A DNA stretch of 5,073 nt from the IMG/VR virus record IMGVR_UViG_2541047825_000005. One strand, written 5' to 3'. This document shows positions 38 through 4,755 of the stretch, one piece after another. Each line of letters opens with the position of its first letter. Within the stretch, counting starts at the first letter, position 1. This DNA is from a virus. Lineage: Duplodnaviria > Heunggongvirae > Uroviricota > Caudoviricetes. The position numbers and the translations under genes are program-made. Under the pieces are notes generated by a model, which worked only from the letters and a program-made list of their open reading frames with translations, made no database searches and was not told the origin of the DNA.

Positions 38-862
38 TCAGGCGGTGAAAGTACCAATAAAGGTTTCTACTTTGCTGTCTTTGAATTTCTCAACAAGCAG
101 ATCACGAAATTCGTTAGCCATTTCTTCCTGCACCGCTTCCAGCTGAATAATGCGCAGAACCAGTACAGGACGATCGCCAGTGATAATGCTGAGGCGTAAT
201 TTAAACGGACGTTCTTTCAGACCTTCAAACGGAACGCATTTAAATTCAAATGCCACTGGCATAATGTCTTTGGTCTTCGCTTCGACAGACTCCATCAGGG
301 AGCGTTTGCCGCTGAAGTCATTATCTTCAAAATCAGCGGTCTGGTTCGCTTCAATTGTGATTTTACGGATCGCCGCAGCCGCTTTGGTTGCCTGAATGGC
401 GTCACCATTAGCATCAAAGCCCACAAGGTAGTCGGCCCAGTCTTCAATCCATTCTGCCAGTGACTTCTGGGAGTTACGCTCGCCGTTAACAGACAACAGG
501 GCAGAGAACGGTGCTGTCTTTTTCAGTTTGAGAGTGGCGGTGTTATCTGCGTGACCTGGTTCATCAATAGTACCCAGGTTAAGCACACTGACTGCTCGCA
601 TATTATCGGCATCGATAAAGCAGCGGGTGCCTTCATCTGCAAGATCTTTAGAATAACGGGTAAAGTCATCGATGCTGGCAGTGGAAAGCGCACCACGGAA
701 ACGGAAGCGATTTAAATTAAATTTTTCCAGATCATGAATGCGGAAATTCTCAGGCAATGCCACAGCATCGGCACCAATCTTACTGATAATTTCATTAACA
801 CCCTGAGCAGAAATAAGAGCATGGATTTGATTAATTGCGGTTGCGTCTAAGTTCTGAGACAT
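38..862 (-). CDS. yfdQ: DUF2303-family prophage protein (YfdQ-like), 274 aa
   Basis: Complete ORF. ATG at 862 is preceded on the minus strand by TGAGGA with a 6-nt spacer. Amino-acid composition is protein-like. Length and sequence recalled as matching E. coli K-12 CPS-53/KpLE1 YfdQ; identity is from memory, not a search. Confidence 0.8.
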
Positions 863-927
863 AATAAGTCCTCACTATATAAAGATATTCAGTGATGAGA
901 TAAATAATCAGTTAATTAAGAACGATA

Positions 928-1290
928 TTAATGACCTGCTGCGCGGAGTTTTCCGTCAGGTTCACCGGCAAGAGTCAGTAATTGTCCCTGGTCTTCCTGC
1001 AGAATAGTCAGGCGACCACCGCGATTGACATACATCGGCGTTTCGGTGGTGTCTTCTTCAGAAATTTTCCCGCGGTTAGTCGGGCGAACATATGAAAGTT
1101 TGTGTTTGATTTTCACACGGTTCTCATCAAATGGTTCGATTTCCAGGTTGAGTGAGACCTTACCTTTGGTTTTCGTGTTCATCACACCTGAAGCGACTTC
1201 ACTGAGAACTGCGCCGATTTTGGTTTCAAATACGCCGCCGTCCAGCTCCCCGATAAATGCCTGCACATCAGTACTGCGTTCGCTAGCCAT
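928..1290 (-). CDS. yfdP: YfdP-like hypothetical prophage protein, 120 aa; first gene of the leftward early operon
   Basis: ATG at 1290 is preceded by GAGGAG with a 7-nt spacer (minus strand). The ORF-track extension to 1476 has no RBS-supported start except in-frame ATGATG at 1308/1305 (alternative start, +6 aa). Sits immediately upstream of the YfdQ-like gene, as in KpLE1. Acidic, no recognisable motif. Confidence 0.7.
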   Translation of the reverse strand: MASERSTDVQAFIGELDGGVFETKIGAVLSEVASGVMNTKTKGKVSLNLEIEPFDENRVKIKHKLSYVRPTNRGKISEEDTTETPMYVNRGGRLTILQEDQGQLLTLAGEPDGKLRAAGH

Positions 1291-1338
1291 TTTGCTGCTC
1301 CTCATCATATCGACCCTGCAAGGTCGGTTGGTTTCTCC

Positions 1339-1427
1339 ACAAAACAGAGAAGAACACCTGCGGTGACTGCCGCCCGGATGGATTGGGTTATGAGCCCGTC
1401 GTCCGGTGATGCTCTTCTCTGTTTTGT
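1339..1427 (-). promoter_or_regulatory. Predicted long RNA hairpin in the 5' leader of the yfdP-like gene (perfect 15-bp stem enclosing 59 nt); candidate RNase III or antitermination element
   Basis: Plus-strand ACAAAACAGAGAAGA (1339-1353) is the exact reverse complement of TCTTCTCTGTTTTGT (1413-1427). The interior contains further short GC stems (GCGG/CCGC, CCGG/CCGG). Lies about 50-140 nt upstream of the start codon at 1290. Confidence 0.4.
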
Positions 1428-1473
1428 AAAAAGAGCGGTACCAGCCGGAAGCAAGTGTACAAACTGGTACCGC
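1428..1473 (-). terminator. Intrinsic-terminator-like hairpin with U-tract on the minus strand, inside the early-left leader
   Basis: Stem GCGGTACCAG (1435-1444) pairs with CTGGTACCGC (1464-1473), a 10-bp perfect stem with a 19-nt loop. Read on the minus strand it is followed by TCTTTTT (1434-1428). The same tract reads CGCTCTTTTTACAA, which resembles boxA. Confidence 0.4.
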
Positions 1474-1904
1474 CAAAGCAGTGGCTGTTGTGGTGACCGG
1501 TGCTGATCTCCGGCTTGCGGTTATTTCAGACTCTCACGGGTGTTTAATTGCCCCGCCGAACAGCTCTTTTCCGCAATAGCTGCAATGTCTTTCGCGCATC
1601 AGCCTGCGCATTCACCACAACGCTGAGAGCACTTAGCCAGTTACGGCACCACACTTTGTCGCGGTTCCATAAATGCCCTCATCGTTGCACCCTGGTCTCT
1701 TCCCAGGCGTCAAACCGAATCGCCACGCTGGTTAGGCGTCTTATCAGCATCCTCATTGACTTGCACATTCCGGCTACCTGGTTTGTCTGCTCGAGCAAGG
1801 AGTGGATTGTCCCCTTTAACGTCCCCAGACCGCTAACGACGCATGTGCCATACGCCGTGTTACAACCAAATTTTGTTAGGACCTTGTTTGTTGGTCTGGA
1901 AAGA

Positions 1905-3063: not shown

Positions 3064-3607
3064 GCATCACTGGAAAGTGGAAAAACAGCCTGAGTGGTAC
3101 GTGAAAGCTGTCAGAAAAACTATCGCGGCGTTGCCGGGGGGTTACGCTGAAGCTGCTGAGTGGCTGGATGTAACAGAGAACGCTTTATTCAACCGCCTTC
3201 GTGCAGATGGCGATCAGATTTTCCCGCTGGGATGGGCAATGATTTTACAGCGCGCGGCTGGCACTCACTACATTGCGGATGCTGTCGCACAGTCTGCAGG
3301 TGGGGTGTTTGTATCGCTTCCTGACATTGAGGAAGTTGAGAACGCCGATATAAACCAGCGCCTGCTGGAAGTCATCGAACAGATCGGGAGTTACTCAAAA
3401 CAGATTCGTTCGGCAATCGAAGATGGGGTAGTGGAGCCACACGAGCAGACAGCAATTAATGATGAGTTGTATCTGTCAATTTCGAAGCTCCAGGAGCATG
3501 CAGCACTGGTCTACAAAATCTTTTGCGCTCCAGAAAAGAGTGACGCCCGCGAGTGTGCAGCTCCGGGCGTCGTGGCGTTTTGTGTCTGTGGAGAAACTAA
3601 CGCATGA
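3056..3607 (+). CDS. Phage early regulatory protein, 183 aa, possibly CII-like/YdaT-family (family assignment uncertain)
   Basis: GTG start at 3056 preceded by GGAGG (3043-3047) with a 6-nt spacer, overlapping the cro stop by 8 nt. Protein-like composition. Putative HTH-like segment AEWLDVTENALFNRLR. Position immediately after cro matches the cII / ydaT slot. Confidence 0.7.
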   Translation: MGKHHWKVEKQPEWYVKAVRKTIAALPGGYAEAAEWLDVTENALFNRLRADGDQIFPLGWAMILQRAAGTHYIADAVAQSAGGVFVSLPDIEEVENADINQRLLEVIEQIGSYSKQIRSAIEDGVVEPHEQTAINDELYLSISKLQEHAALVYKIFCAPEKSDARECAAPGVVAFCVCGETNA

Positions 3608-3752
3608 ACAGTTTAACGGCAAATAACCGTTTGTCGCAACAGCTGGTGGTCAGTGTCGCTGAACACCTGTTGTTACGGCATGAATGCAGATTACCAAATC
3701 ACCTGGCTGTAAGTAACCACAGAGAACTTTACCTGACTGTGGGGGGCGAGTT

Positions 3753-3932
3753 GTGCAGGAACTTAACCGCTGGTTTCGTGACGGAAGAGGGCTTTATGTT
3801 CATGTTATTCGTTGGGAACCAGAAACACAGCGCGTTATCTATCTTCGCAAAGACTACCCGCATGAGTGCTTTAGTCCTTTGTGGAAATTCAGGCGTGATT
3901 TTGTTGAGTGTGAAGGACCACCAGCACATTGA
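3753..3932 (+). CDS. Candidate small ORF (59 aa, GTG start) in an alternative frame to the long stop-free frame; hypothetical
   Basis: G6 tract (3741-3746) acts as a possible SD, with a 6-nt spacer before GTG at 3753. Translation VQELNRWFRDGRGLYVHVIRWEPETQRVIYLRKDYPHECFSPLWKFRRDFVECEGPPAH has normal Asp/Trp content but is Arg-rich. Below the length cut-off of the supplied ORF track. Unverified. Confidence 0.25.
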   Translation: MQELNRWFRDGRGLYVHVIRWEPETQRVIYLRKDYPHECFSPLWKFRRDFVECEGPPAH

Positions 3933-4017
3933 TTCTGCCATTCCGGGACGTTACACTGTTCAGGCACCTTATAAAGCGGGTGCCGGGCGTGGAAACTCGG
4001 AATTCACCAAAGCGCAC

Positions 4018-4040
4018 AACCGCGCTCTTGCGGTTTTTTT
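4018..4040 (+). terminator. Terminator-like hairpin with T7 run on the plus strand (tR1-like position); also carries the boxA-like heptamer CGCTCTT
   Basis: Stem AACCGC (4018-4023) pairs with GCGGTT (4030-4035) around loop GCTCTT, followed by TTTTT so the T-run spans 4034-4040. Only 4 GC pairs, so a weak stem. It lies inside the stop-free frame 3604-4209. Confidence 0.3.
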
Positions 4041-4209
4041 GTGTAATGAGCAGCATTACGCCCAAATTATGGTGGGGCGTGCAGGGCCAACTTCGGTTGG
4101 GCCGGGTTCTTTGGTGACCGGTATTTCCACCCCTGTACGTCTCACCACCAATAAGGTCGTGGAAAGCCTTGGTGGTGAGTTATTAAAAATCACCAAAGAG
4201 GCTGCCATC

Positions 4210-4755
4210 ATGGCTACGATCCCAACCCTCACTCAACCTGAAATTGCCATCGTTGATGGTCAGGCTGTTACTTCATCCCTGGCTGTTGCCAACTTCTTCT
4301 CCAAACGTCATGACGATGTACTGAAAAAGATCCGCACGCTTGAATGCTCTGCATCATTCACTTCCCGCAATTTTTCGGCGAGTGATTACACCGATTGCAC
4401 AGGCCGCAAACTACCTTGCTATCAAATAACCCGCGACGGCTTTGCGTTTCTTGCTATGGGTTTCACGGGTAAACGTGCTGCCCAGTTCAAAGAGGCATAT
4501 ATCAATGCCTTTAACCAGATGGAGAAACAGCTTTCAAAGCCCGCTGTACCGAGCGACGTTGCACATAACGCCAGCGTTCTCTGTTCCTACATTTCATCAA
4601 TTCATCAGGTCTGGCTGCAGCAGCTTTATCCTATGTTGGCAAAAGCCGAATCTCCGCTGGCTGTTAGCTTATATGATTATATTAATGATGCTTCGGCGCT
4701 GGCCTGCCTCATAAATTTGTCGCTGAACCCTTCAGAGGTAAGGGGGCGCAAATGA
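4210..4755 (+). CDS. Rha-family phage regulatory protein, 181 aa
   Basis: ATG at 4210 preceded by AAGAGG (4196-4201) with an 8-nt spacer. N-terminal segment IAIVDGQAVTSSLAVANFFSKRHDDVLKKIR...YQITRDGFAFLAMGFTGKRAAQFKEAYINAF matches the recalled Rha N-terminal domain signature. The frame is open upstream to ATG 3604, so a 383-aa version cannot be excluded. Confidence 0.8.
   Translation: MATIPTLTQPEIAIVDGQAVTSSLAVANFFSKRHDDVLKKIRTLECSASFTSRNFSASDYTDCTGRKLPCYQITRDGFAFLAMGFTGKRAAQFKEAYINAFNQMEKQLSKPAVPSDVAHNASVLCSYISSIHQVWLQQLYPMLAKAESPLAVSLYDYINDASALACLINLSLNPSEVRGRK

Follow-up and report, generated by a model that had tools for sequence, protein, structure and literature searches.

The genes yfdP and yfdQ were analysed in a 5,073-nucleotide stretch of DNA from a virus of the class Caudoviricetes (IMG/VR record IMGVR_UViG_2541047825_000005), which is referred to as the window at its full length. 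They form a fixed two-gene unit that is transcribed from a repressor-controlled leftward promoter through a structured leader containing a terminator. With a probability of roughly 30%, this unit acts as an early accessory module of DNA replication or recombination at the host replisome. New here are the count of adjacent loci, the correlation of the distances of the two proteins, the survey of gene context and a motif at the C-terminus of YfdP.

Identity of yfdP and yfdQ

The yfdQ product matched PF10065 (DUF2303) with E=6e-93 and 311 bits (curated cut-off 26.6 bits), its residues 7-272 aligning with positions 2-269 of the 269-position profile, and phrog_210 with E=6e-120. The yfdP product matched phrog_204 (E=1.2e-49), and PF27127, a recent Pfam family outside the Pfam set scanned, is precomputed for P0121, the 99%-identical cluster representative of YfdP. 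The E-values of these profile searches place both genes far above chance as coding sequences. The YfdP family comprises 437 clusters (50% identity) matching at E≤0.001. At the DNA level, positions 1-2100 were ~98% identical to RefSeq loci annotated as yfdP and YfdQ family protein; this annotation and the profiles agree with the names that a preliminary description of the window had given. By tblastn, YfdQ was 98.9-100% identical to SfV orf31 and to the proteins of mEp460, PhiR63_1 and Stx2c phages, and YfdP was ~100% identical in phage records. The exact sequences of YfdP and YfdQ were each found in at least 1000 contigs, and a match to the region was present in 3156 out of 5426 complete genomes of E. 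coli, 1195 of which covered at least 80% of the query. Annotated yfdP and yfdQ genes with an identity of 98-100% are present in SfV, in mEp460, in Stx phages and in E. coli genomes by the thousand; the genes are therefore already catalogued, and the object is a known family, not a new kind of element.

Neither protein carried a functional name in any source as of the September 2026 copy of RefSeq, and the same applied to the source names of both protein clusters. Searches of Pfam, NCBIfam and PADLOC returned nothing beyond DUF2303: the PADLOC defence models gave no match at E≤1 for either protein, no Pfam anti-defence family was matched, and a Pfam search over 72 diverse YfdP members yielded noise only. 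The two families were unrelated to each other by hhalign. Neither profile nor fold similarity was found to the superfamilies of single-strand annealing proteins (SSAPs; Rad52/Redbeta/Erf, RecT, Sak4 and Gp2.5). The structural model of YfdQ had no match at E<0.001 when compared with the PDB by Foldseek, in structure libraries that were released up to 2026-04-08 and do not contain entry 9o7m. The profile of the YfdQ family matched this single entry in the PDB; that of the YfdP family matched the AcrB pore domain with E=0.04, which was treated as noise. The preliminary description had recognised no helix-turn-helix (HTH), ATPase, nuclease or arginine-rich motif in the pair, and none was found here. 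Profiles, defence libraries and folds yielded no confident match to a characterised family, a result that would have refuted the preliminary description. Its term 'functionally dark' nevertheless goes too far in view of the published yfdQ phenotypes and PDB entry 9o7m. The literature contained no paper naming 9O7M or MET23-P3, and nothing functional on DUF2303, YfdQ or YfdP beyond the papers cited here.

Homologues of YfdP in Marinobacter and Xanthomonas phages (L092, 5986-6351; L094, 28717-29091; Olaya; Soumapaz) are labelled 'translation elongation factor', which is probably an annotation error that propagated and for which no support was found here.

Co-inheritance of the two genes

A tblastn search of 50,697 phage records detected YfdQ-like genes in 184 and YfdP-like genes in 181 of them, with almost identical distributions over taxa (YfdQ/YfdP: Escherichia 53/52, Vibrio 32/28, Stx2a 26/26, Stx2c 15/15, Xanthomonas 15/15, Pseudomonas 5/5). 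When 11 diverse genomes (SfV, ST64B, ArgO145, VvAW1, pA2SJ1, BA3, CP2, LPPA56, PG1, Psymv2 and TCUP2199) were analysed with hmmsearch, yfdP was located directly upstream of yfdQ on the same strand in all of them, with a spacer of 38-65 nt in ten. The same was true for 52 of 53 IMG/VR loci with yfdQ (relatives of the Pseudomonas and Psychrobacter branches), the exception carrying a truncated yfdQ. In total, this arrangement was present in 63 of 64 loci, representing Escherichia, Vibrio, Xanthomonas, Pseudomonas, Acinetobacter and Psychrobacter. A scan of IMG/VR with an enterobacterial alignment recovered near-identical loci only, and an Acinetobacter query gave no pattern matches.

For 52 unique pairs, the pairwise distances of YfdP were correlated with those of YfdQ (r=0.96, slope 1.03, Mantel p≤0.001). 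The module is passed on intact, with both proteins diverging at equal rate, which is unusual for mosaic phage genomes. Together, the adjacency in 63 of 64 loci and this correlation settle a doubt raised in the preliminary description, namely whether the two genes are conserved jointly outside their lineage.

The putative YfdP-YfdQ fusion proteins P0011, P0073 and P0160 from E. coli were rejected as natural fusions and attributed to in-frame deletions or assembly chimeras, as were long YfdP-containing E. coli proteins such as P0246, P0277 and P0320. In some E. coli genomes, YfdP and YfdQ are joined by an in-frame deletion that leaves the N-terminus of the former and a C-terminal portion of the latter, a case of prophage decay that looks like a domain fusion in precomputed Pfam architectures.

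Transcription and translation of the unit

The repressor gene, yfdPQ and the gene set of the plus strand, which includes cro-like, cII/YmfL-like and Rha/Ash genes, identify the window as the immunity region of a lambdoid prophage. On the minus strand, ~720 nt devoid of a credible open reading frame (ORF) separate the repressor gene from yfdP. They contain an operator-like site (~1918-1934; TTGCACATTACGCAA), which matched the OR half-sites at 2745-2790 by repeat analysis and in sequence; half-sites of the form TTGC(G/A)...CGCAA are common to the putative OL/pL and OR/pR regions. The site overlaps a weak TTGCAC-17-TATCTT promoter in a layout that parallels pR/OR at 2745-2790, and from these repeats and the sequence, we infer that the promoter is pL. 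It was not scored by a consensus promoter scan because its -35 hexamer is TTGCAC. Since the repressor gene and the operator-like site are followed by no credible ORF up to yfdP, yfdPQ comes first among the protein-coding genes of the leftward early transcript. The position assigned to the pair in the preliminary description, directly downstream of the leader, thus holds for this phage type. Two caveats apply, namely a conserved intrinsic-terminator hairpin in the leader, ~140 nt before yfdP, and a strong hairpin (~4-25) between yfdQ and yfdR.

The leader between the OL/pL-like site and yfdP comprises roughly 600 nt. It is kept in SfV, whose immunity is different, and in ST64B, phiNP, Flotzy and Eeyore, and it moves with yfdP; in the latter four phages YfdP is only ~60% identical, yet the leader is conserved. 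The distal leader and the immunity region differ between hosts. An RNAalifold analysis of six leader sequences yielded 52 base pairs, 9 of them with compensatory changes. The terminator stem is formed by three unrelated sequences, its U-run being invariant, and conservation at the apex of the long hairpin exceeds that of the proteins. The leader had no match in Rfam, and no N-like gene was found. The conserved fold, the terminator and the compensatory pairs bear out the wording 'regulated leader' of the preliminary description. Because of the intrinsic terminator, expression of yfdPQ must depend on read-through, and the leader suggests a control at this step that is possibly put-like, as in an antitermination element, or RNase III-dependent.

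In Hafnia phage yong2 (L151, ~1060-1135), a shorter region stands in place of the leader and, by eye, seems to contain a tRNA-like sequence (GGTGTAGCTCAGTTGGTAGAGC...GGTTCAAGTCC); the hairpin proximal to the Shine-Dalgarno sequence is the sole part kept.

The reading frame of yfdP is nested in a longer mechanical ORF (928-1476, minus strand). ATG 1290 was taken as the real start codon because it is the RefSeq start and because homologues of 110-125 amino acids from many, partly distant, phages can be aligned from residue ~5 onwards. The sequences preceding the start codons, GAGGAGCAGCAAA-ATG for yfdP (GAGGAG) and GTGAGGACTTATT-ATG for yfdQ (GAGGA), place a good Shine-Dalgarno sequence at proper spacing in front of both genes. 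ORFs and sequence thus confirmed two co-oriented genes of the sizes and spacing first reported, each with its own ribosome-binding signal; the two are not translationally coupled. The hairpin behind yfdQ may be an attenuator that turns yfdPQ into a sub-operon. Previous work, in which yfdPQ mRNA was detectable in K-12, lists the two genes as an operon (PMC9181523); together with this hairpin, that entry suggests that they form a sub-unit of the transcript.

Gene context

In the E. coli locus, SfV, ST64B, phiNP, Flotzy, Eeyore and Hafnia phage yong2, the gene order is repressor, leader, yfdP, yfdQ and yfdR, with yfdR encoding an HD-type 5'-deoxynucleotidase; an integrase gene follows further downstream in the E. 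coli locus, SfV and ST64B, the loci sampled that far. Other phages carry the pair after Gam-RecT-Exo-SSB (ArgO145) or Erf-RecE (BA3), before Erf-exonuclease-SSB (CP2/MET23-P3) or between a DEDD exonuclease and SSB (VvAW1). Additional neighbours were YqaJ/RecE exonucleases, Gam, NinB and a YfbR-like 5'-deoxynucleotidase, and a census of 89 neighbour proteins with Pfam and PHROG was led by YqaJ, SSB, ERF, RecT, RecE-like exonuclease and YfbR-like 5'-deoxynucleotidase. The pair can therefore not be viewed as a feature of the lambdoid 'N slot', as the preliminary description had it, since in ArgO145, BA3, CP2 and VvAW1 it lies amid recombination or replication modules.

This context favours an accessory function in DNA replication or recombination. 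A recombination accessory was one of three functions originally suggested; as to the other two, nothing was found for superinfection exclusion and nothing specific for anti-defence. Taken as a whole, the earlier interpretation was partly supported.

A clamp-binding-like motif in YfdP

YfdP is predicted to fold into a long N-terminal helix (residues 9-39) and three long antiparallel strands (44-88), followed by a C-terminal tail (AlphaFold2 (AF2) model with a predicted local distance difference test (pLDDT) score of 91.3). Its N-terminus (MASERSTDVQAF) contains one arginine and the protein has a pI of 5.7, which does not correspond to an arginine-rich motif of the lambda N type.

The C-terminal tails of YfdP homologues are variable save for one short peptide. 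The tails of 88 full-length cluster representatives (50% identity) contained Qxx[LM]F in 44 cases and a relaxed form in 55, whereas none of 113 family members had the motif within its first 80 residues. It started exactly 17 residues past the TPMYV anchor in 48 representatives. In the 68 representatives with a hydrophobic-aromatic core, position 1 was Q in 54, position 3 was D or Q in 44, position 4 was L or M in 55 and position 5 was F in 63, giving the family consensus Q-[GT]-[DQ]-[LM]-F. Examples are QGQMF (Vibrio, Marinobacter), QGQLF (ST64B, ArgO145), QHDLF (Psychrobacter), QSDMF and QTDMF; one sub-branch has the hexamer-like forms QTEMGF and QTNFQL.

The canonical motif for binding to the beta sliding clamp is Q-phi-x-[L/M]-[F/L] or Q-phi-x-[L/M]-x-[F/L] (PMC11139829). 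The family motif of YfdP comes close to this definition and resembles the QADMF peptide of Pol III alpha, a likeness of sequence that does not amount to a demonstration. In the window, the form QGQLL agrees with the clamp consensus at positions 1, 4 and 5, with glycine at position 2.

YfdQ and PDB entry 9o7m

YfdQ is an acidic protein of ~30 kDa (pI 5.0; 4.6-5.5 throughout the family). Its AF2 model has a pLDDT of 77, with cores above 90; the segment 172-196 is predicted to be disordered but is conserved in sequence (residues 183-195 correspond to window 278-316). Alignments of 11 and 17 diverse members revealed the conserved residues R52, R54, R56, T61, Y70, H104, D106, E140, D141, R166, S188, R223 and R237. 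The residues T61, Y70, F82, G97, H104, R166, S188, P202, L215, F252 and G270, which are invariant in the family, are all present in the window protein, as are the family RxRFRG and EDW motifs. A putative DxD where strand 1 ends is not conserved (several lineages have N in place of D84, and D86 is variable), and a reading as nuclease was therefore dropped.

The unpublished PDB entry 9o7m, 'YfdQ Protein', contains 36 chains of 274 amino acids (phmmer E=8e-45; family profile E=2.6e-93). It is of the same family and length as the window protein and shares with it RxRFRG, PGHAD and ExxEDW. This only solved relative demonstrates the formation of very large assemblies by YfdQ proteins, or their crystallisation in such a state. 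Its closeness to Xanthomonas phage MET23-P3 (CP2-like) amounts to 98.8% sequence identity, and in CP2 and MET23-P3 a YfdP homologue is encoded directly upstream of YfdQ, as in the window. A virion reconstruction of this phage as the source of the entry was rejected: neither the capsid protein of MET23-P3 nor the YfdP homologue or the downstream neighbour is present in the PDB.

Possible functions

In published work, Noguchi and Katayama found that yfdQRST suppresses hda-185 when present in multicopy; additional copies inhibited initiation at oriC in vivo and in extracts, yfdQ and yfdR were both needed, along with either yfdS or yfdT, and YfdR bound domain I of DnaA, the roles of YfdQ, YfdS and YfdT being left unexplained (PMC4776307). 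Mutants lacking yfdQ are reported to be sensitive to methyl methanesulfonate (MMS) and H2O2 (work cited in PMC4776307), and overproduction of YfdQ led to plaques from a co-resident prophage (preprint, bioRxiv 10.1101/413146). Casjens and colleagues described yfdP and yfdQ as common in lambdoid early-left operons, with no known function (PMC12315714).

From identity, co-inheritance, gene context, motif and the published multicopy phenotype, we infer a tentative mechanism in which clamp binding, cooperation of the two proteins and the direction of the effect are all conjectural. YfdQ would present a conserved Arg/His/Asp/Glu surface and assemble as a large homo-oligomer. YfdP would be a small alpha+beta adaptor, whose C-terminal peptide could insert into the hydrophobic cleft of the beta clamp or, alternatively, into YfdQ. 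After induction, the module might damp host replication or redirect it towards phage DNA synthesis or recombination-dependent replication. The adjacent YfdR, an HD nucleotidase and DnaA binder, would act together with it in lambdoid phages. The specific version of this scheme, a hijacking of the clamp, is doubtful: YfdP would tether the large YfdQ assembly to clamps left on DNA and thereby block access of the host polymerase or Hda, or else recruit the replisome and the recombination machinery to phage DNA.

Several observations weigh against a replisome-directed accessory function and, in particular, against the clamp as its target. The window motif ends in LL and not in LF. Position 2 of the family motif is usually G, T or S and rarely aliphatic, which predicts a weak affinity for the clamp. 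The glutamine is absent in some lineages (TDQLF in Pseudomonas, NKDLF in Xanthomonas), and others have a degenerate hexamer only. The motif is located behind the last strand, where the pLDDT is 79 and falls to 66 towards the C-terminus, and given this value and the fixed spacing of +17 from the TPMYV anchor, the peptide may be partly ordered and may instead pack on YfdP itself or dock into YfdQ. YfdQ is acidic and lacks a recognisable DNA-binding or catalytic fold. In the multicopy experiments, yfdP was dispensable for suppression of hda-185 and YfdQ was not pulled down with DnaA (PMC4776307). The published phenotypes are all effects of overexpression or weak effects of deletions in a cryptic prophage. 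As the pair is found alongside complete Rec modules but also without them, Casjens and colleagues considered a role as recombinase unlikely (PMC12315714). Neighbours from DNA metabolism are common for any early phage gene.

A possible, though still improbable, alternative is an accessory role in recombination or repair that does not involve the clamp, with the YfdQ oligomer and YfdP assisting or protecting the DNA intermediates of an adjacent SSAP, exonuclease and SSB; such a factor could serve as a mediator, bind DNA ends or handle single-stranded DNA. In ArgO145, BA3, CP2/MET23-P3, VvAW1 and pA2SJ1, genes for Erf/RecT, exonuclease and SSB directly adjoin the pair, and RecT and YqaJ are encoded near it in JC1. 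Annealing proteins are typically large oligomers and 9o7m contains 36 chains, and the reported MMS sensitivity of a yfdQ mutant points in the same direction. The arguments drawn above from the acidic nature and fold of YfdQ, the missing similarity to SSAPs and the occurrence without Rec modules bear on this alternative as well.

An anti-defence function is unlikely. An abundant early YfdQ oligomer could sequester a nucleotide signal or block a host immune protein, with YfdP as cofactor, and early expression, the large oligomer, the fact that no essential function is known, conserved Arg/His/Ser/Thr residues suggestive of a phosphate-binding pocket and one sampled neighbour, an inhibitor of the cyclic-oligonucleotide-based antiphage signalling system (CBASS) of the Acb3 type, are compatible with this idea. 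However, the defence and anti-defence searches in PADLOC and Pfam were negative, the pair is consistently found within DNA-metabolism modules, and its synteny, constant length and clock-like co-divergence over many host genera are unlike the patchy occurrence and fast turnover of counter-defence genes.

Superinfection exclusion, which the preliminary description had suggested, or another prophage-benefit ('moron') function expressed in the lysogen is very unlikely. The weak stress phenotypes reported for CPS-53 deletions (cited in PMC4776307) and the yfdPQ mRNA in K-12 (PMC9181523) could be read in its favour, but in intact prophages the genes are expected to be silent in lysogens because they lie behind pL/OL and an intrinsic terminator. 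Moreover, both proteins lack signal peptides and membrane segments, and CP2-, VvAW1- and BA3-like phages carry the pair in sampled regions without a repressor or integrase gene.

It is equally improbable that YfdQ is a virion-packaged protein that is injected with the DNA or coats it: mass spectrometry of purified virions of Burkholderia podovirus JC1 did reveal its DUF2303 protein, gp10 (PMC9144972), but such preparations can be contaminated by an abundant early protein, the gene is always part of early, non-structural modules and is found in many phage lineages and genome types, and 9o7m is not a virion reconstruction of the closest phage, as the major capsid protein of that phage is not in the PDB. 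The remaining probability falls to explanations not considered here.

Features of the window

The features of the pair, its leader and the surrounding immunity region are listed in Table 1.

Table 1. Positions of the features identified in the 5,073-nucleotide window.
Feature	Position	Strand	Details
Hairpin AAAUGCCCC-UGCG-GGGGCAUUU	~4-25	minus	GC-rich, terminator-like; directly 3' of the yfdQ stop codon, ahead of yfdR
yfdQ	38-862	minus	274 aa; DUF2303, PF10065, phrog_210
YfdQ E140/D141	437-445	minus	
YfdQ PGHAD (H104/D106)	545-559	minus	
YfdQ RxRFRG (R52/R54/R56)	692-709	minus	
yfdP-yfdQ spacer	863-927	minus	65 nt, AT-rich; contains yfdQ Shine-Dalgarno sequence GAGGA
yfdP	928-1290	minus	120 aa; PF27127 / phrog_204
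YfdP Q101-G-Q-L-L105 (QGQLL)	976-990	minus	Local form of the family C-terminal Q-x-[D/Q]-[L/M]-F; motif peptide LQEDQGQLLTLAG
Structured leader RNA	1291-1640	minus	Fold z=-6.2 versus shuffled sequence
Leader, small Shine-Dalgarno-proximal hairpin	1309-1328	minus	
Leader, ~25-bp hairpin	1339-1427	minus	Invariant apical sequence
Leader, intrinsic-terminator hairpin	1435-1473	minus	U-run 1426-1434
Leader, long-range helix	1612-1621 paired with 1487-1496	minus	
Putative pL and OL-like operator	1898-1937	minus	CACTTGCACATTACGCAAT; -35-like TTGCAC and -10-like TATCTT, 17 nt apart
cI-like repressor	2013-2705	minus	230 aa; HTH and peptidase S24
isrK Hfq-binding RNA	3964-4040	plus	Rfam, 62.5 bits, above gathering score
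C4 antisense RNA	4065-4152	plus	Rfam, 83.6 bits, above gathering score

On the plus strand, the isrK and C4 RNAs are encoded just upstream of the Ash/Rha-domain reading frame, which looks like a c4-antirepressor immunity module of the P1/P7 type within a lambdoid immunity region. A mechanical ORF of 383 amino acids (3604-4755, plus strand) overlaps both small RNA genes, but its Ash and Rha domains do not start before residue ~117. In this region, the RefSeq annotation consists of a Rha-family protein of smaller size and, separately, a 59-amino-acid DUF4222 ORF (3753-3932), and the 383-amino-acid ORF is probably not the real gene.

Significance and comparison with known systems

The genes yfdPQ are among the commonest prophage genes of unknown function, and their interest lies in their wide distribution, their strict conservation and the possible link to the clamp. 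Carriers of the pair include Stx2a, Stx2c and Shigella serotype-converting phages as well as phages that infect Vibrio, Xanthomonas/Xylella, Pseudomonas and Acinetobacter. Because it makes up much of the very short early-left operon of the SfV/ST64B type, which is devoid of an N gene and a recombination module, the pair is probably of importance to the lytic programme. A defined activity of yfdPQ would close a long-standing gap in the biology of lambdoid early genes. If the proposed clamp interaction were true, YfdP would represent a new natural ligand of the beta clamp, an antibiotic target, and it would provide a handle on the interference of temperate phages with host replication as well as an explanation for the overexpression phenotypes of yfdQRST. 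If the clamp were indeed hijacked, this host-takeover mechanism would be encoded in more than half of the complete E. coli genomes and in Stx-converting phages.

Compared with proteins that contain a clamp-binding motif (Pol III alpha, QADMF; Pol II, QLGLF; UmuC, QLNLF; Hda, QLSLPL; MutS, QMSLL), YfdP has a similar peptide of the form Q-x-x-[L/M]-[F/L] with variable charged flanks, but it shows no homology outside the motif and rarely has an aliphatic residue at position 2, so that the likeness would be one of mechanism and not of membership. The occupants of the lambdoid early-left operon (N, Gam, Kil and cIII of lambda; gp24 and Abc1/2 of P22) have the same position as yfdPQ, behind pL/OL and a structured leader with a terminator, and are likewise repressor-controlled. 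The pair differs from them in that it has neither an arginine-rich motif nor similarity to them in sequence or fold, and in that it is not confined to lambdoid phages or to this slot. The closest counterparts of the window genes are yfdP-yfdQ of E. coli K-12 CPS-53/KpLE1, orf32-orf31 of SfV and the homologues in mEp460, the Stx2c phage and PhiR63_1, which have the same genes, order, spacer and downstream yfdR. The K-12 CPS-53 copy has lost its repressor context but otherwise displays no difference of substance.

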